64,000 bases of DNA, from positions 232 through 64,231 of the forward strand of contig JBOGUF010000018.1 in the NCBI GenBank assembly GCA_050696075.1. Reading direction: 5' to 3'. Shown here piece by piece: positions 6,971 through 30,887 of this stretch. Source of the DNA: Thermomicrobiales bacterium (lineage in GTDB: Bacteria > Chloroflexota > Chloroflexia > Thermomicrobiales > UBA6265). Made by a program: the position numbers and the translations under genes. Position 1 is the first letter of the stretch, and each line of letters begins with the position of its first letter. Below the pieces are notes generated by a model. The model worked only from the letters and a program-made list of their open reading frames with translations, was not told where the DNA came from and made no database searches.

Positions 6971-8563
6971 ATGGCCTTTCGCCGCCAGGACATTCCGAAA
7001 ACGACCCGCAAAGGGACCGACGGCGAGCGCCGCCGCTTGTACCCGCGTTACTTGCGGGACGGCTCGGTGCTGCCCAAGATCGACTTGGCGACCGCGTATC
7101 TTGACGGCATGGTCGGGCGGCGACGGGCTGAATTGTCGCCGGATGCGGTCGTCGAGTTGTTTGGCGATCCCAAGCTGGCCCGCTGCATCCTCTCCTGCCT
7201 GGCGGATACCTATCGCTACCGTACGCCGGCCATCCGCGAGATCGCGGGTGAGGACGTGGCGACGCGCCTTGCGGCGTGGGATCTCTTGACCTCGGCAGAC
7301 TTGCGGCATCACGTCTACACGGCGCTGCAACGGGATGAGCGGGGCTGCGCGAGACCGGATGGTCGCGCCGACTTTCTGCTGAAGGTTGCCGAGCCGCTGG
7401 GCGTCGATGGAGTGCTCCTCGACCGGCTGCTTCACCTCGACGCCGAGCGCAACGCGCTGTTGGCGCGGACCGGCGAACGACCAGAGGCAGAGGATGTCGT
7501 TGCCCGCTACAACGCGATGCTGACGCTCTCGGTGCTCCGGCAGGCATCCTCGATCACGCTCCATCTGCCGAGGTTGGATGGGACGATGCTGGAGACGATT
7601 TGCGCACGACTCGACGTCGAATGGCAGCGGACGCCGGACGGGGGAGTGCGCTTGGTCGGTCGTCGCGACGCGCACGGCACGTGGAGCCGTTTTGGCGGGC
7701 GGTTGGCGCGGTGCGCCGTACAGCTTTTCATCGTCTGCCCTGGCGAACCGGAAGGTGAGGCGACGGTTCATCTGAACAGCGAGCCGCTTCGCTTCGTGCT
7801 CGATCGCAACGTCGTCGCCTCGGTGCGGCCGAAGCAGCGGGCGTCGGCGGGCGCGGCGGGCACGATCCGAGCCACCCAATTGTTCGACGACCTACTCGCG
7901 TACCGGCGACGGTGGAGCATCGACGGTTGGACATTCCGCCGGGCGATGGAGCCGCTCGTCGTCAAGGGGTCGCTGGTGCTGCCGGAGATGCTCTGCGTGC
8001 GAGGCGACCTGACCGTAGCCGTCGTGGCGGTCGAGCAGGGCCAAGTCGAGGCGATTGCGGCGATTGAGGCAGTCGATCAACAGCGGCCGGTGATCGCCCT
8101 CGGATTGCAACCCGGCACAACCACCTGTCCCGCGATCGCGACCGGCAGCGCGGAGGCGTTGTTGCGGCTGCTGGAGACGGAAGTGGACGAGGCCGAGCCC
8201 GGTCAGACGCCGATGCGATTGGTCGCGGCCGAACTTGCGTTCGACGGCTGGGTTGGGGTGACGCGGCTGGACGAACTCTTCCAGGGTGAAGACGAGATGC
8301 GAATCCGGCTGATGCCGCTGACCGAGGACGGCGAGGCGGCATTCGTGCCCGGTTTCGGACTTTGCCGGACAATGCTCCTGGACGATCTGCGGGATCAACA
8401 CCTGTGCGGTCCGGTCGAGATTCCGTATCTGCGGGCGGCGATTGCGGATCGCTTCGGCGATGGGCCGGCGGCCGACGCGCTGACGCTGCATCTGTTGAGT
8501 GCGGGTGCGTTCGTCCCTGGTCGCCAGGCACGGGGCGAGCCGACCGAGGCGCGGGCCGCCTGA
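6971..8563 (+). CDS. DUF790/Bax1-like protein (putative nuclease partner of XPB-type helicase)
   Basis: The 530-aa ORF has a GAGGAGG Shine-Dalgarno before the ATG. Its N-terminal pattern (LYPRYLRDGSVLPKIDLATAYLDGMVGRRRAEL...GDPKLARCILSCL) matches my memory of DUF790 proteins. It sits immediately downstream of an XPB-like helicase. The family call was not verified by search. Confidence 0.55.
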   Translation: MAFRRQDIPKTTRKGTDGERRRLYPRYLRDGSVLPKIDLATAYLDGMVGRRRAELSPDAVVELFGDPKLARCILSCLADTYRYRTPAIREIAGEDVATRLAAWDLLTSADLRHHVYTALQRDERGCARPDGRADFLLKVAEPLGVDGVLLDRLLHLDAERNALLARTGERPEAEDVVARYNAMLTLSVLRQASSITLHLPRLDGTMLETICARLDVEWQRTPDGGVRLVGRRDAHGTWSRFGGRLARCAVQLFIVCPGEPEGEATVHLNSEPLRFVLDRNVVASVRPKQRASAGAAGTIRATQLFDDLLAYRRRWSIDGWTFRRAMEPLVVKGSLVLPEMLCVRGDLTVAVVAVEQGQVEAIAAIEAVDQQRPVIALGLQPGTTTCPAIATGSAEALLRLLETEVDEAEPGQTPMRLVAAELAFDGWVGVTRLDELFQGEDEMRIRLMPLTEDGEAAFVPGFGLCRTMLLDDLRDQHLCGPVEIPYLRAAIADRFGDGPAADALTLHLLSAGAFVPGRQARGEPTEARAA

Positions 8564-9484: not shown

Positions 9485-9625
9485 GACCACCTCAATCATC
9501 GTACCAGCCGGATCTGTGGATTGTAGCCGCCGAAGACGGCGCGGGGGCAGCAACCTTGCGCGGGCCTGCGACAATAGGCAGAGCCGGCGGCAATGTCGAG
9601 CCGGTAGCGAGAAGCAGACCGGAAA

Positions 9626-13537: not shown

Positions 13538-14314
13538 TCAGTGAATGCGGGAGCGAGCGGTGACGGGGTTGCGGAGGGTGCCGATGCCGCCGACGGTAAC
13601 GTCGATGACGTCGCCAGGGGTGAGGGGGCCGACGCCGAAGGGGGTGCCGGTCATGATGACGTCGCCGGGGTGCAGGGTCATGATGTGGGAGATGAAGCTT
13701 ATCAGGAAGGGGATAGGAAAGAGCATGTCGGCGGTGGTGGCGGACTGGCGAACTTCGCCGTTGAGGCGTGATTCGACCTTGACGCTCGTCGGGTCGAGGT
13801 CAGTTTCGATCCAGGGACCGAGGGGGCAGTAGGTATCGAAGCCTTTAGCGCGGACCCGTTGCCCATCCTTGCCCTGGAGGGTGCGATCGGAGACATCGTT
13901 GCCGCAGGTGTAGCCGAGGACGTGGTTCAGGGCACCGGATTCCGGGGCTCGTCGTGAAGTGCGGCCGATGACGACGACGACCTCGGCCTCGTAGTGGGTC
14001 GGGTGGTCGAGGTGGGCAATCTCGATCGGCTGGTCCGGGCCGATCACGGCCGACGGCGGTTTCATGAAGATGACCGGCTCGTCGGGGATCTGGCGGGTAG
14101 CGTCGCGCTCGGTGACGAGGGCCGCGTAGTTGAGACCGACACAGACGATCTTGCCGGGATCGAGCGGCGCCATGAGGTTGATCGACGCCAGCGGCCCGAT
14201 CTCGTCGCCCTTTGCCAGAGCGGCGAAGAGGTCGCCATTGGCGGCAAAGACGGTCTTGTGTTCGACGACTCCCATTGCCGGGCCGTCGTGCCCGACGTAG
14301 CGTACGATCCTCAT
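13538..14314 (-). CDS. fumarylacetoacetate hydrolase (FAH) family protein
   Basis: Starts at MRIVRY (ATG at 14314). Motifs: KIVCVGLNY, IFMKPPSAVIGP, YEAEVVVVIG, GYTCGNDVSDR, PGDVIMTGTPFGVGP. Confidence 0.85.
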   Translation of the reverse strand: MRIVRYVGHDGPAMGVVEHKTVFAANGDLFAALAKGDEIGPLASINLMAPLDPGKIVCVGLNYAALVTERDATRQIPDEPVIFMKPPSAVIGPDQPIEIAHLDHPTHYEAEVVVVIGRTSRRAPESGALNHVLGYTCGNDVSDRTLQGKDGQRVRAKGFDTYCPLGPWIETDLDPTSVKVESRLNGEVRQSATTADMLFPIPFLISFISHIMTLHPGDVIMTGTPFGVGPLTPGDVIDVTVGGIGTLRNPVTARSRIH

Positions 14315-17111: not shown

Positions 17112-18086
17112 ATGAGCGTGAGAGCCAGCGATGCCGGGCACGCGGGTGCGGGACCCTTTTGGAAACAGCAAAAGTGGGAAGCGACGATCGCCTTCTGGGT
17201 GCTGATGGCCCCGATGCTGATCGGCCTGGGTCTCTTCGTCTTCGCGCCGATCGTCTGGGGTTTCTTGATCAGCCTGTCGGAAGCGCGCAATACGGTCAGC
17301 ATCAGCGAGTTCGTCGGTTTTCAGAATTACGTTGACATTCTGCGCGACAGCGCGTTCCGCAAGGCGATGCGGACGGGCGTGATCTTTACCGCCTTCATCG
17401 TGCCGCTGACATTTGTGTTTTCGCTCGGGCTAGCGATGCTGGTGAACGGCGCCGGCTTCGGCCGACCGGTCTTCCGCACCATCTTCTTTATTCCGACCGC
17501 GGTTTCGTATGTCATCGCGTCGCTCGTCTGGAAGACAAGCATCTTCAACGGCACGCCCTACGGCGTCGCCAACTTGGCGCTGTACGAGTGGTTCGGCTAC
17601 GAAAAGGTGATCTCGTGGATCTCGCCGCCCGCGGGCGATCCGCCCTGGTATTGGCTGGTCTTGGTGACTGTTCGGCTCTGGCTCCAGGTCGGTTTCTACA
17701 TGATCATCTTCATCGCCGGGTTGCAGGAGATTCCGCGCGACCTCTACGAAGCAGCGTACGTTGACGGGGCGCGGTCCGGTTGGACGACTTTCCGCACGAT
17801 CACGTTGCCGTTGTTGCGCAACACCTCGATCGCCGTGCTGCTGCTCAACTTCATCGCCGCCTTCCAGGCGTTCGACGAGTTTGCCAACATCTTTGGCAGC
17901 ACCGGCGCCTCGGCCGGCAACGTAGGGCTGGCCCGACCGCCGCTGATCTACCTCTTTCAGATTGGGCTGAATAACCAGAACTACGGGCTGGCTTCGGCCG
18001 GCGCGTTCATCCTGACCGCGCTGATCATCGCCGTGACGCTCGTGCAGGGGCGCATCTTCGGATTCGGCCGGTCGACGGCGGCCTAA
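17112..18086 (+). CDS. carbohydrate ABC transporter permease (MalF/UgpA-like)
   Basis: It is a multi-TM protein with the EAA-loop region LQEIPRDLYEAAYVDGA. The start was chosen at MSVRASD (ATG 17112) within track ORF 17025..18086. Confidence 0.85.
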   Translation: MSVRASDAGHAGAGPFWKQQKWEATIAFWVLMAPMLIGLGLFVFAPIVWGFLISLSEARNTVSISEFVGFQNYVDILRDSAFRKAMRTGVIFTAFIVPLTFVFSLGLAMLVNGAGFGRPVFRTIFFIPTAVSYVIASLVWKTSIFNGTPYGVANLALYEWFGYEKVISWISPPAGDPPWYWLVLVTVRLWLQVGFYMIIFIAGLQEIPRDLYEAAYVDGARSGWTTFRTITLPLLRNTSIAVLLLNFIAAFQAFDEFANIFGSTGASAGNVGLARPPLIYLFQIGLNNQNYGLASAGAFILTALIIAVTLVQGRIFGFGRSTAA

Positions 18087-26715: not shown

Positions 26716-27411
26716 TTATCTAGGCTCGGAGGAACGGCGTCTTGACTCATATAGCGCCCTGAACTTTTCGAACAGGCGGTCCGCCGCGATCTCCATCAAG
26801 ATCGCGTCGGGATCGGGCAGGGGATCTGTCTGTAGCCAGTCTGAATCGAGCCAGAACCCGGATAGCACCGTCGAATGCACCTGGCCATCAGCGTCGGGCT
26901 GAATCGGCTCGTAGACACCTTCATCCGTCAAGGCTGAGGCGTGGACGTCTCGGCGACTTGTGCGGGAATCGATCGTCCAATACTCGCGGACACCAGCCTT
27001 CGCATACTCGTGGAACTTGTCGCGCCGATCCCGTGTGACGCTGTCGGGCGAAATGACGTCAATGACGAGATCGGCCGGTCCATTCAAGCGGTCGACCGTA
27101 ATCCGATCCGAGTGATCGCGGGAGACGAAAGCGATGTCCGGTTCACGCGACGGCCGAACGGGCGCCAAGCGCATTTCGAACGGAGCAATGAGCACCGTTC
27201 CGAGGTCAAGAAGCCGGGCATACCGCGACATGAGACTGCCCAGGAACAGGATGAACTACTGATGCAGTAGCTTCGGCATATCAAGAAGGATCACCTTACC
27301 ATCGACCCATTCGGCACGTGTCTCGTCGCCGGCCCACGCGAGGAACTCATCGTAGGTCATGATTCGTCGTTGCTCATCCGTAGAAGGTGCCGTGAAGAGT
27401 TGCCGTACCAT
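26716..27411 (-). pseudogene. Uma2 (DUF820) family endonuclease interrupted by an in-frame TAG
   Basis: The frame reads MVRQLFTAPSTDEQRRIMTYDEFLAWAGDETRAEWVDGKVILLDMPKLLHQ*FILFLGSLMSRYARLLDLG... The TAG lies at 27256-27258 (minus strand). The track shows only the downstream 171-aa part. The full length (232 codons) matches the two intact paralogs. Confidence 0.7.
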
Positions 27412-27507: not shown

Positions 27508-28215
27508 TCATTCCGCTGGAGACGACCGCCGCGCCGCGTGAAACGCCTTGATCCGATCCAGGTAGGCGTCAGGCGCGATTTCCATGAGGATCGCGTCCGG
27601 ATTGGGCAACGGGTCTTGCCAGAGCCAGTTCGGGTCGAGCCAGAAGCCTGCCAGGACAGCAGAGTGAAAGAGACCCACATCGTCGAGCGGCAGTTCCTCG
27701 TAGTAGCCCTCGGCGGTGATGCCGTAGGGCCAGAACGACTGACGGCCGGTGCGCGGGTCGAGGAGCCAGTATTCTGGCACGCCAGCGGCCGCGTATTCGG
27801 CGAATTTGTCGCGCCGGTCGCGGGTGACGCTGTCGTCCGACATGATCTCGAGGACGAGGTCGGCCGGACCGTTCAGACGTTGGCCGTCGAGCCGGTCGAA
27901 ATGCTCGCGGGCGACGAAGAGCAGATCAGGTTCGCGGTACGATCTGCCCTCTCGCAACTTCATCTCGAACGGCGCCGTCAAAACCTTGCCCAGATCGAAC
28001 AGGCCGACGAAAAGGCCGAGGAGCACCGTAAGGAAGTAATTCGTGTTGTTGTGACGTTCGTCAGGCGGCACGAAAACTGTCACCTCCCCATCGACCCATT
28101 CGGAAAACGTATCCTCGCCCGCCCACGCGAAGTAGTCCTCATAGGACATGCGGAACGTGCGCTCGGTTTTGGCAGCGGGTTCGATGACTTGGCGTGCCAT
28201 GTTGTGTCCTTCCAC
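27508..28215 (-). CDS. Uma2 (DUF820) family endonuclease
   Basis: The 235-aa ORF carries YEDYFAWAGEDTFSEWVDGEV, APFEMKL, EPDLLFV, GPADLVLEIMSDDSVTRDRRDKFAEYAAAGVPEYWLLDP. Confidence 0.8.
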   Translation of the reverse strand: MEGHNMARQVIEPAAKTERTFRMSYEDYFAWAGEDTFSEWVDGEVTVFVPPDERHNNTNYFLTVLLGLFVGLFDLGKVLTAPFEMKLREGRSYREPDLLFVAREHFDRLDGQRLNGPADLVLEIMSDDSVTRDRRDKFAEYAAAGVPEYWLLDPRTGRQSFWPYGITAEGYYEELPLDDVGLFHSAVLAGFWLDPNWLWQDPLPNPDAILMEIAPDAYLDRIKAFHAARRSSPAE

Positions 28216-28310: not shown

Positions 28311-28976
28311 TCATGATTGGAGCGCATCCGGCGCAATCGTCGCTAGCAACCGCAAAGGGTCGGGCAGCGGGTTTTGCCAAAGCCACGCCGGATCGAGCCA
28401 GAAGCCAGGTAGGACCGTCGAGTTGAGGCGACCGCGCTTATCGGACGGGATAGGCTGGTAGACGCCGCGGTCGCTGAGCGCAAACGGCTCCACGGTGCGA
28501 TGACGCTCACGGGGGTCGACCATCCAATACTCCGGAATGCCAGCTTGCTGGTATTCGAGGAGCTTGTCACGCTTGTCGCGCGTCACACAATCAGGGGAGA
28601 TGACTTCAATGACGAGATCGGCCGGTCCGTCCAATCGGACTTCGGTAATCCGATCGAGATGGTCGCGAGCGACGAACATGATGTCTGGCTCCCGTGACGA
28701 TCGCACAGGAATCAGCCGCATCTCGAAGGGCGCGACCATGACCTCCCCGAGGCCGAGCACATCCGCATACTGCGACAGGAGTCTTACCAAGAGGACTATA
28801 ATCCTCTGGTGAATAGTGTTTGGCATCTCGAGGACGATCACCTCACCATCGACCCATTCGGCACGCGTCTCCTCGCCAGCCCACGCGAGGAACTCATCGT
28901 AGGTCATCCGCGGGAGGTCGTTGGTCAGGCCGGCCGGTTTCGTCAGTTGCTGCGCCATCATCTGTCCCTGGGGCAT
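28311..28976 (-). CDS. Uma2 (DUF820) family endonuclease
   Basis: The 221-aa ORF carries YDEFLAWAGEETRAEWVDGEV, APFEMRL, EPDIMFV, GPADLVIEVISPDCVTRDKRDKLLEYQQAGIPEYWMVDP. Confidence 0.8.
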   Translation of the reverse strand: MPQGQMMAQQLTKPAGLTNDLPRMTYDEFLAWAGEETRAEWVDGEVIVLEMPNTIHQRIIVLLVRLLSQYADVLGLGEVMVAPFEMRLIPVRSSREPDIMFVARDHLDRITEVRLDGPADLVIEVISPDCVTRDKRDKLLEYQQAGIPEYWMVDPRERHRTVEPFALSDRGVYQPIPSDKRGRLNSTVLPGFWLDPAWLWQNPLPDPLRLLATIAPDALQS

Positions 28977-29030
28977 GTCGTCCGGCGAAGCGCCGAGTTC
29001 TATGGTACATCAGACCCCGCTTGCCGTTGC

Positions 29031-29059
29031 TTGCGCCGCATCGCGGCAGCCGGTATAGT
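29031..29059 (+). promoter_or_regulatory. candidate sigma70-type promoter (TTGCGC-17 nt-TATAGT)
   Basis: The -35-like hexamer is at 29031-29036 and the -10 TATAGT at 29054-29059. The expected start site falls at or next to the ATG at 29066. Confidence 0.3.
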
Positions 29060-29065
29060 CCGGCC

Positions 29066-29182
29066 ATGAACGAGCAGACGTTGACCGACCGGATCGAACA
29101 AGCAACGGTGTCCCTGACTCCCTGTGCTGGGGTCATGAAGATGGTGATGCTTGTGCCTGTCGGTCCGAGGATGAGCGGGTAG
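29066..29182 (+). CDS. candidate leaderless Met-rich leader peptide (38 aa) upstream of metG
   Basis: The peptide is MNEQTLTDRIEQATVSLTPCAGVMKMVMLVPVGPRMSG, with Met at positions 24, 26, 28 and 36. It lies between the candidate promoter and a terminator. This is a hypothesis only. Confidence 0.3.
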   Translation: MNEQTLTDRIEQATVSLTPCAGVMKMVMLVPVGPRMSG

Positions 29183-29225
29183 AGCGGTCGTCGCCCGCGC
29201 ACCTCAACTCGAACCGACAGGCAGG

Positions 29226-29256
29226 CGGGAGCAGTCAGGCTCCCGTTTCCTTTTGT
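29226..29256 (+). terminator. intrinsic terminator-like hairpin in the metG 5' leader
   Basis: The stem CGGGAGC (29226-29232) pairs with GCTCCCG (29239-29245) around a 6-nt loop, followed by TTTCCTTTTGT. No plus-strand gene lies upstream of it. It ends about 60 nt before the metG ATG. Confidence 0.55.
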
Positions 29257-29315
29257 CGATTACCCATCGGACGACCCGCCACCGAAGAGAGGACACCAGA
29301 CAGGAAGCAACCGCC

Positions 29316-30887
29316 ATGAGCGTCACCACGCGATCGGGGCCAACGCCCTTTTACATCACGACCGCCATCGACTACCCCAACGCGCCGCCGCACATCGGGC
29401 ACTCGCTGGAGAAAGTCGCGGCGGACGTCGTTGCCCGCTACCACCGGTTGATCGGCGACGACACTGCCTACACTATGGGGTTGGACGAGAACAGCCAGCA
29501 TGTCCTCCGCGCCGCGATTCAGAACGGCGTCACGCCGGTCGAATGGACCGACGATATGGACGTCGCCTTCCGCCGCGCCTGGGATGCGCTCGACGTCTCG
29601 CGCACCGCCTGGGTCCGCACGACCGAAGAGCGCCACTTCCGCGCCTCCCAGGAGCTCTTCCGTCGGGCACAAGCTAATGGCGACATCTACACCGCGACCT
29701 ACGCCGGCTGGTATTGCCCGAACTGCAACAACTATTACATCGACGAGGAACTGGTCGACGGGCGCTGCCCCAACCACCCGACGATCGAGCCGGACTGGCT
29801 GGAGGAGGAGAACTACTTCTTCGCCCTCAGCAACCACCAGGAGCGGCTCCGCCGCCACATCGAGGAGCACCCGGAGTTCATCACCCCGTCGGTTTGGCGG
29901 CCGGAGATGTTGGCGTTGATCGATCGCGGTCTGCGCGACTTCTCGGTCTCGCGCGCTGTCCGTCCGGGTACGACGCCCTGGGGAGTGCCCGTGCCGGGCG
30001 ACCCGAACCACGTTCTTTACGTCTGGTTCGACGCCTTAACGACCTATCTGACGGCGATCGGGTTCCCCGATGATACGGAGACGAGCGCGCGGTACTGGCC
30101 GGCCGACTCTCAGGTGATCGGCAAGGATATCCAGCGGTTCCACTGTCTCTATTGGCCGGCGATGCTGCTGTCGTCGGGTCTGCCGCTGCCGCGGCGGGTC
30201 ATCGTCCACGGTTTCATCACCGTCGAGGGGCAGCGCATCTCGAAGACGACGGGCAACGTTATCGATCCGGTCAAGCTGGTGGAAGAGTTCGGCGTCGACC
30301 CGGTCCGTTACTACCTGATGCGGGATATCACGTTTCGGTCGGACGGCGACTTCTCGCGGGCGAACCTGATTCGCCGCCACAACGACGACCTGGGCAACGA
30401 CCTGGGCAACCTGCTCAACCGGGTCGTGGCAATGGTCGGCCGCTATCGAGATGGACGTGTGCCGGAACCCGGCGAGCCGGGCGAGCCGGAGGTGGACTTG
30501 CGGCGCGTGGCGGAGGAGGCGCGAGACCGGGCGGCGGAGCAGATCGAAGCGTGGGAACTCGACCGGGCGCTGGAGTCGCTGTGGACGTTGGTGCGGCGGG
30601 CCAATCAATATCTTGAAGCGCGGCAACCCTGGAAGCTGGCCAAGCAACCAGAGGCGGCTCAAACGCTGGAGACGACCCTCTGGACGGCGGCCGAAGCGAC
30701 CCGGCTAGTGGCGATCTTCCTCGCGCCATACGTTCCAGCCACAAGCGACAAGATCGTCCACCAGCTTGGGCTGGAGCCGATTAAGGCCGGCGCCTGGGCG
30801 AACGCCGGGCAGTGGGGAGCGGCGACGTTCGGCGCGGTGAACCTGGCCGGGCCGATCTTTCCCCGAATCGAAGTCGCTACCGTCTGA
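29316..30887 (+). CDS. metG: methionyl-tRNA synthetase
   Basis: It has the class I HIGH motif (PPHIGHSLE), a zinc knuckle (CPNCNNYY...GRCPNH) and the KMSKS variant RISKTTG. The start was chosen at MSVTTRSGPTPFYITT (ATG 29316) within track ORF 29253..30887. Confidence 0.95.
   Translation: MSVTTRSGPTPFYITTAIDYPNAPPHIGHSLEKVAADVVARYHRLIGDDTAYTMGLDENSQHVLRAAIQNGVTPVEWTDDMDVAFRRAWDALDVSRTAWVRTTEERHFRASQELFRRAQANGDIYTATYAGWYCPNCNNYYIDEELVDGRCPNHPTIEPDWLEEENYFFALSNHQERLRRHIEEHPEFITPSVWRPEMLALIDRGLRDFSVSRAVRPGTTPWGVPVPGDPNHVLYVWFDALTTYLTAIGFPDDTETSARYWPADSQVIGKDIQRFHCLYWPAMLLSSGLPLPRRVIVHGFITVEGQRISKTTGNVIDPVKLVEEFGVDPVRYYLMRDITFRSDGDFSRANLIRRHNDDLGNDLGNLLNRVVAMVGRYRDGRVPEPGEPGEPEVDLRRVAEEARDRAAEQIEAWELDRALESLWTLVRRANQYLEARQPWKLAKQPEAAQTLETTLWTAAEATRLVAIFLAPYVPATSDKIVHQLGLEPIKAGAWANAGQWGAATFGAVNLAGPIFPRIEVATV

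Follow-up and report, generated by a model that had tools for sequence, protein, structure and literature searches.

The question raised by the metG locus in a 64,000-nucleotide stretch of Thermomicrobiales DNA (hereafter the window) is what the leader of this gene does. Upstream of metG, which encodes methionyl-tRNA synthetase (MetRS), lies a small open reading frame (sORF) with clustered methionine (Met) codons, followed by an intrinsic terminator. After comparing this leader with those of related bacteria, we conclude with a probability of roughly 0.7 that it belongs to a family of ribosome-mediated (leader-peptide) transcription attenuators of metG that sense charged Met-tRNA. Across the family the elements of the leader, its reading frame and its enrichment in Met are conserved, and in a sister clade the terminator, a hairpin around the Met codons (P1) and an antiterminator covary. 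The elements of the window copy, with positions in nucleotides (nt) and with folds taken from the minimum free energy (MFE) structure where indicated, are the following.

29031 to 29059, + strand: putative promoter, read from the sequence, with a -35 hexamer TTGCGC (29031-29036), a 17-nt spacer and a -10 hexamer TATAGT (29054-29059).
29066 to 29182, + strand: leader sORF of 38 codons, MNEQTLTDRIEQATVSLTPCAGVMKMVMLVPVGPRMSG, then TAG at 29180-29182; orthologues keep its start position and frame.
29098 to 29154, + strand: hairpin P1, whose 3' arm contains the Met cluster (MFE fold; -22.3 kcal/mol when folded in isolation).
29135 to 29149, + strand: Met-codon cluster ATG AAG ATG GTG ATG, whose last ATG (29147-29149) is invariant in all seven aligned Thermomicrobiales leaders.
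29148 to 29163, + strand: antiterminator 5' strand ("region 2"), TGCTTGTGCCTGTCGG, in the sORF directly 3' of the Met cluster.
29175 to 29197, + strand: apical hairpin GCGGG(T)...(G)CCCGC, which carries the sORF stop codon (MFE fold).
29214 to 29233, + strand: antiterminator 3' strand ("region 3"), CCGACAGGCAGGCGGGAGCA, from consensus pairing and duplex energies.
29223 to 29256, + strand: intrinsic terminator with stem AGGCGGGAGC/GCTCCCGTTT (core 29226-29245), loop AGTCAG and a T-rich tail to 29256.
29316 to 30887, + strand: metG, 523 amino acids, the proposed regulated gene (Pfam tRNA-synt_1g, E = 7e-97, and Anticodon_3).

A first-pass annotation of this DNA had already pointed to most of these parts. 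The promoter hexamers, the ATG at 29066, the 38-codon frame, its four Met codons and the metG ATG at 29316 all match the sequence. The hairpin that it described, CGGGAGC-AGTCAG-GCTCCCG followed by TTTCCTTTTGT (29226-29256), is present and also appears in the MFE fold, as do the two complementary pairs that it listed, CCTGTCGG (29156-29163) with CCGACAGG (29214-29221) and GCGGGT (29175-29180) with GCCCGC (29192-29197). It had seen no plus-strand gene upstream of metG; likewise, the metG leader is free of gene calls in the public annotation of the metagenome-assembled genome GCA_975325355.1, which confirms the metG gene call.

Six bases separate TATAGT from the ATG at 29066. From the conserved spacing of the -10 hexamer, transcription is expected to start at A29066 or 1 nt earlier, which would give a leaderless mRNA. 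The frame upstream of the sORF is free of stop codons back to about 28820, and ATG 29066 is therefore taken as the start on account of its distance from the -10 hexamer. All five ATG triplets of the sORF are in frame, and its 37 codons after the start include four internal Met codons (29135, 29141, 29147 and 29171), three of them within five codons. Clusters of three ATGs in five codons occur four times in the six frames of the window, which corresponds to about 1e-3 for one 38-codon ORF; the others lie at 13680 (+), 18747 (+) and 17699-17713 (-). The terminator ends about 60 nt 5' of the metG ATG. A scan of the window scored it at 10 pairs, six of them G-C, and its hairpin folds at -16.1 kcal/mol. 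Only five terminator-like sites were found on both strands of the 64 kb, which are 65% G+C, and the metG-leader site is the strongest, has the longest stem and is the only one on the + strand between 28000 and 31500. The folding energy of the leader as a whole is unremarkable (z = -1.76). Because the gene upstream of the leader, of the Uma2 family, is divergent, a terminator in this intergenic region can only act on the metG transcript, and we rejected its assignment to the upstream gene. The window evidence alone is only suggestive, and it is solely through conservation in relatives that the arrangement rises beyond chance.

We therefore turn to the relatives. Judged by its MetRS protein, the window belongs to Thermomicrobiales (Chloroflexota). 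MetRS orthologues share 56-76% identity with the window protein, and none above 76% was present in the genome or metagenome collection. Six further distinct Thermomicrobiales metG leaders have the anatomy of the window (L002, which is identical to L081, and L062, L082, L083, L003 and L004). In all seven leaders a promoter of the form TTGC-N17/18-TATAGT (GATAAT in L083) is followed after 6-7 nt by an ATG. The sORFs are 30-38 codons long, and each has 3-7 internal Met codons, all in frame. Their N-terminal halves are unrelated (MNEQTL..., MNVTAR..., MDDQVG..., MDDFVL..., MKRMAR..., MAGIVR...), and the invariant ATG follows the start ATG at a distance of 66, 69, 78 or 81 nt, in each case divisible by three. 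Common to the seven leaders are an invariant ATGC, then GCC.G..GTC, and a G-rich partner, GGC.GGC.GGAGC. The ATG at 29147-29149, which begins the antiterminator 5' strand, sits in the invariant ATGC columns; the fourth Met codon of the window sORF (29171, Met36) is not kept in relatives. In five of the seven leaders the sORF stop follows the invariant ATG by 11 codons and falls within a small apical hairpin of the antiterminator loop. The terminator is 97% paired across the seven and sits 38-122 nt 5' of metG.

A sister leader is carried by most Ktedonobacteria metG loci, from genomes and soil metagenomes (L012-L063 and L091-L160, about 70 loci), 150-250 nt 5' of metG. Its sORF has about 40-45 codons, with the consensus ...MLT....M.M..M....(R/K)VSLSS...., and an AGAGGA-like motif lies 5' of it where upstream sequence is available, so that this sORF is apparently preceded by a ribosome-binding site. 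Its terminator, GAGGGGCGCAGGCGACAGACCTGCGCCCCTT and a T-run, is strongly conserved and lies 23-125 nt 5' of metG in most loci; a small hairpin spans the sORF stop codon. No Rfam family corresponds to this sister leader. Terminators were found in 91 of the 159 metG loci examined. That relatives would keep the sORF and its Met codons, as the first-pass annotation had suggested they might, was borne out both by the six other Thermomicrobiales leaders and by the Ktedonobacteria.

Summed across the 77 distinct leaders of the two types, the ATG triplets fall into the three frames as 429/37/32, the first being the sORF frame, or about 5.6 Met per 37 residues (about 15%). The frame in this count was picked as the ATG-richest one; the start-codon column provides an independent definition and agrees with it. 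In the Ktedonobacteria leaders this column holds ATG in 21 cases, GTG in 15 and TTG in 8 (44/47), and all 47 of 47 keep it in the reading frame of the Met cluster, at a distance of 42-66 nt. Two further spacings of conserved blocks are divisible by three in 46/46 and 45/46 cases. In total, 138 of the 139 inter-block spacings, which range from 12 to 66 nt in 50 Ktedonobacteria leaders, are multiples of three. Frame-preserving insertions and deletions together with a conserved start column indicate selection on the reading frame and its translation.

These data bear on the possibility that the leader works as a binding RNA for a ligand, a tRNA or a protein (a divergent T-box, an S-adenosylmethionine (SAM) or Met riboswitch, or a MetRS operator), with its reading frame incidental. 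There are examples of such control, since metS is among the synthetase genes controlled by T-boxes in Firmicutes, and the product of E. coli thrS regulates its own gene. Most aminoacyl-tRNA synthetase genes in Firmicutes are T-box controlled (PMC1262725), and the metG leader does have conserved helices. The multiples of three and the conserved start column nevertheless speak for selection on translation, and the leaders have no conserved multi-helix core beyond the hairpin, the antiterminator and the terminator. In addition, a search of window positions 28700-29600 against Rfam 15 (E <= 10) returned no T-box, SAM or other family, apart from a chance snoRNA match inside metG (E = 2.9), and 19 orthologous metG loci gave no T-box, SAM or other match at the gathering score. 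With these negatives for the window and the 19 loci we rejected a T-box or SAM riboswitch, and we regard a binding RNA of any of these kinds as very improbable.

We then considered pairing in alignments of 50 Ktedonobacteria leaders (A1) and of the seven Thermomicrobiales leaders, including the window (A2). L031 was excluded from the alignments, since it contains an N run and a garbled duplicate terminator that are probably an assembly artefact. Pairing in A1 reaches 99.5% for the terminator, where 9 of 11 pairs show double changes, and 89% for the hairpin that encloses the Met codons, where 6 of 8 pairs have changed in a compensatory way; RNAalifold recovers this hairpin independently. The A1 antiterminator joins an sORF segment just after the cluster, GTGTCGCTGTCC, to the 5' arm and loop of the terminator. 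It is 81.5% paired, as compared with 38-51% when the strands are slid, and 9 of its 15 pairs show compensatory changes, among them the matched sets GTGTCGC/GCGACAC, GTGTCAT/ATGACAC, TATCGC/GCGATA and TGTTGC/GCAACA. In A2, columns 120-132 pair with columns 191-203 (window 29149-29161 with 29220-29232) at 85.7%, as compared with 39-44% when slid. This conserved long-range helix runs from the G of the invariant Met codon through the 5' arm of the terminator (29226-29232). A conserved terminator with an antiterminator that overlaps it indicates that control is transcriptional.

The helix first pointed out in the window, CCTGTCGG/CCGACAGG, is the same strand pair as the conserved antiterminator, slipped by 4 nt; the slippage is possible because CAGGC occurs twice (29218-29222 and 29222-29226). 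Region 3 pairs through 29214-29223 in the slipped register and through 29220-29232 in the conserved one, of which 29226-29232 is also the terminator 5' arm. Duplex energies in the window are -21.3 kcal/mol for the slipped and -23.0 to -26.0 kcal/mol for the conserved register. We rejected the slipped helix as the antiterminator, because it leaves the core of the terminator free and is 71% paired across relatives; we propose that it may act as a scaffold. The first-pass annotation had proposed to look for mutually exclusive structures by folding; the conserved helix that overlaps the terminator 5' arm is a candidate for one of them, and the particular helix noted is compatible with the terminator. 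Covarying stems were found for the terminator, the P1-like hairpin and the antiterminator of Ktedonobacteria, but not at significance for the antiterminator of the seven Thermomicrobiales leaders.

The same alignments are relevant to a different possibility, in which the sORF is an independent gene for a Met-rich micropeptide with its own terminator, and metG is transcribed from a separate promoter 3' of that terminator. Conservation of the sORF start and frame would fit such a gene, as would the prediction, described below, that the terminator forms nearly always at equilibrium. The peptides, however, are unrelated outside the Met residues and the part whose sequence is shaped by RNA pairing, and a covarying antiterminator that overlaps the terminator would have no role in a stand-alone gene. 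Moreover, the gap between terminator and metG is just 23-125 nt in most loci, and a promoter scan of the window found no promoter-like site between 29257 and 29315. The linkage to metG is also held across two classes despite differing upstream neighbours. For these reasons we judge a free-standing micropeptide gene to be quite unlikely.

For the attenuator that we favour, the following scheme is one in which the start of transcription, translation of the sORF, stalling, timing and the physiological response are all inferred. Transcription would begin at about 29066, so that the 5' end of the mRNA is the AUG of the sORF, and a ribosome would translate the 38-codon leader while RNA polymerase advances towards the terminator. 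The basal stem of P1, ACAAGCA (29098-29104) with TGCTTGT (29148-29154), covers the start of the antiterminator strand, and we propose that it serves as a "region 1:2" that would hide this start when no ribosome is present. When Met-tRNA is plentiful, the ribosome would cross the Met cluster and 29148-29163 and arrive at the stop codon, which lies in the antiterminator's apical hairpin; with the antiterminator blocked, the terminator at 29223-29256 would form, and most transcripts would stop before metG. When Met-tRNA is scarce, the ribosome would stall at the first Met codon or codons of the cluster, opening P1 and freeing 29148-29163, which could then pair with 29214-29233, including the terminator 5' arm, and so allow read-through and the production of more MetRS.

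We modelled how the position of the ribosome might affect this choice. Masks that still allowed pairing across the ribosome gave noisy results and were abandoned for a cleaner model, in which only the RNA 3' of the stalled ribosome folds, as far as the nucleotide that precedes the terminator 3' arm. In this model the predicted sequestration of the terminator 5' arm is 0.55-1.0 with a ribosome at Met codons at least 4 codons 5' of the invariant Met (1.00 in L003), and 0.13-0.45 with a ribosome at the final Met codons, L082 giving 0.65 at its last one. The window values are 0.58 at Met24, 0.26 at Met26 and 0.42 at Met28. With the ribosome at the first cluster Met of the window, the best folds of both registers include an outer helix, UGCUU (29148-29152) with GAGCA (29229-29233), that occupies the terminator arm. 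The modelled dependence on ribosome position is thus clear in L003 and weak in the window. An alternative sensor, in which Met36 (29171) would act through alternative pairing among GCGGG, GCCCGC and GCGGGAGC, reached 0.60-0.70 on paper and was set aside, as Met36 is not conserved.

Several results weigh against the attenuator or against parts of it. The promoter-like site noted in the first pass has the hexamers and spacing claimed for it, and these are conserved in all seven leaders, but the window promoter fails a generic sigma-70 scan, its weak -35 hexamer having 3 of 6 matches. Covariation of the A2 antiterminator is not significant in a test with seven sequences, in which 88-105 of 500 shuffles reach the observed value on most measures and 39 do so on the covariation score. 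In the window, the slipped and the conserved register are only 0.2-1.8 kcal/mol apart when a ribosome occupies the first cluster Met. Sequestration at Met24 also contrasts weakly with that predicted for a ribosome at the stop codon (0.62) or for no ribosome (0.65). Among the three clustered Met codons of the window, only the first leaves the antiterminator strand uncovered, and once the ribosome has reached the stop codon, it no longer sits directly on the 5' strand of the antiterminator. We assume that a ribosome in the antiterminator apical loop blocks antitermination by steric exclusion, an effect that lies outside the folding model. Finally, when full leaders were folded at equilibrium with ribosome masks, the terminator always formed (P >= 0.85), except in L003. 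As the terminator wins at equilibrium, any switch must be kinetic, as in classical attenuators. The switching logic of the window copy is therefore plausible but unproven, and our confidence in it is below the figure given for the family.

The weak switching predicted for the window, together with the placement of just one of its three clustered Met codons to free the antiterminator, would also suit a translation-coupled attenuator or a constitutive "brake", in which the terminator is real and the sORF is translated but nothing is specific to Met, the ATGs being kept for the hairpin (GGAUGCC/GGCAUCC). Many of the conserved ATGs do lie in the arms of the covarying hairpin. However, Met codons are also found in hairpin loops and in insertions of variable length, always in frame, and the two clades share the Met enrichment although their helix sequences differ. 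A Met content of about 15% of residues, in some 77 leaders of two architectures and always 5' of a MetRS gene, is likewise hard to reconcile with a brake that ignores Met. We consider this alternative rather unlikely. Taken together, these comparisons lead us to favour an attenuator that would read the charging of Met-tRNA.

An extension of this attenuator concerns its default state. Ribosome-free Ktedonobacteria RNA truncated ahead of the terminator 3' arm is predicted to pair its terminator 5' arm with the sORF segment (median 0.63), whereas in the full-length leader RNA the terminator is predicted to be favoured (0.97). Unlike in the trp leader, which is not on by default without a ribosome, the ribosome-free nascent RNA of most of the metG-leader relatives is thus predicted to form the antiterminator and to be on by default. 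MetRS charges both the initiator and the elongator tRNA-Met, and so a leader of the trp style would silence metG just when initiation fails. We tentatively suggest, as a possibility that may well not hold, that the family forms a new logic class of leader-peptide attenuator, suited to the one amino acid with which translation also begins: the nascent ribosome-free leader would fold as the antiterminator, and termination would have to be "earned" through both initiation and passage of the ribosome over the Met codons, so that a shortage of either formylmethionyl-tRNA (fMet-tRNA) or Met-tRNA would induce metG. In the Thermomicrobiales version, termination would be earned by initiation directly at the 5'-terminal AUG.

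Other features of the locus and its relatives were recorded alongside the leader. In the MFE fold of the window, the pyrimidine-rich terminator tail TTTCCTTTTGT (29246-29256) pairs with a purine-rich GACAGGAAG (about 29299-29307) just 5' of the metG start; this pairing is perhaps incidental, or it could help to mask the metG start from translation when transcripts read through. TTG 29253 was rejected as an alternative metG start, because it lies within the terminator tail and homologues align from ATG 29316. Elsewhere in the window, ORFs of 201-484 amino acids at 7109, 48906 and 2571 (+) and at 9490 (-) begin 5-7 nt after a TANNNT hexamer, and leaderless mRNAs may be used more widely in the source organism. 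Directly upstream of the metG leader are three tandem Uma2 paralogues (putative restriction endonucleases, PF05685), arranged head to tail.

26716 to 27231, - strand: Uma2-family paralogue.
27508 to 28215, - strand: Uma2-family paralogue.
28311 to 28976, - strand: Uma2-family paralogue.

The surroundings of metG vary among the relatives. At three Thermomicrobiales loci (L010, L011 and L059) metG lies directly 3' of a gene for B12-dependent methionine synthase (Met_synt_B12, E = 2e-30) with no intervening leader, while in L002 a Met leader with its own promoter is inserted between the B12-dependent methionine synthase gene and metG. About 140-240 nt 5' of metG in L006 we found a third variant, neither leaderless nor like that of Ktedonobacteria, in which a short sORF, (V)LRARQRSMMMSMEDRPG, encodes MMMSM, has a GTG start after GGAG and is followed by a GGGCGGGAGCG terminator.

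The principle of such control is known. E. coli pheST is the classical example of a synthetase gene with a leader-peptide transcription attenuator, and the first-pass annotation was right to name it and the amino-acid operons as precedents. That list is incomplete, however, as leader-peptide control has been established or predicted for Streptomyces trpS and leuS (PMC1262725) and for Bacillus hisS paralogues (PMC2965389). Like these attenuators, the metG leader has a short leader ORF rich in cognate codons, an intrinsic terminator before the synthetase gene and an alternative helix that joins a segment of the leader ORF to the terminator 5' arm. It differs from them in the amino acid that it is proposed to sense, Met, in its occurrence in Chloroflexota and in the putative leaderless form of the Thermomicrobiales version. 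Two further departures from classical attenuators are that its Met codons are interspersed rather than in a straight run, and that its stop codon lies inside the antiterminator apical loop instead of beside region 2.

Two other known systems resemble the metG leader in part. According to a preprint by Canestrari et al. (bioRxiv 10.1101/834739), leaderless poly-Cys sORFs of mycobacteria regulate Cys genes by unmasking a ribosome-binding site. As described there, they share with the metG leader a leaderless 5' sORF (inferred here), clustered codons that match the downstream genes, and stalling as the signal. The mycobacterial mechanism presented there masks a ribosome-binding site and works without a terminator, whereas the metG leader has a conserved terminator and an overlapping antiterminator; its codons are also for Met rather than Cys, and its target is a synthetase gene rather than the biosynthetic locus of that account. 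The Met T-boxes of Firmicutes (metS and met genes) act on the same kind of gene, respond to the charge of tRNA-Met and choose between a terminator and an antiterminator. They do so by binding tRNA directly, with no need for translation, whereas the metG leader is under coding constraints and gave no match to a T-box covariance model in the window or in the 19 orthologous loci.

The earlier statement that no Met-codon leader of a MetRS gene is known agrees with our searches of full-text literature, which returned neither a leader peptide with Met codons nor any attenuation at metG or metS and, for Chloroflexota, no attenuator of the leader-peptide type; subscription journals lie mostly outside the scope of these searches, and an earlier description is possible. 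What is new is the amino acid, the phylum and the combination of a leaderless start with an intrinsic terminator, and the default state may differ as well.

If our reading is correct, Met would join the short list of amino acids sensed through leader peptides, and leader-peptide attenuation would extend to the phylum Chloroflexota. The control of metG in these bacteria would also be explained, no T-box having been detected 5' of metG in the window or in the 19 loci. About 80 unannotated sORFs 5' of metG could then be annotated as regulatory leaders. The two architectures, one leaderless and one with an apparent ribosome-binding site, would arrive at the same output and offer a natural comparison for the evolution of such switches. 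Because Met starts every protein, the family would further make it testable whether a sensor built on the ribosome can report the charging of both initiator and elongator tRNA.

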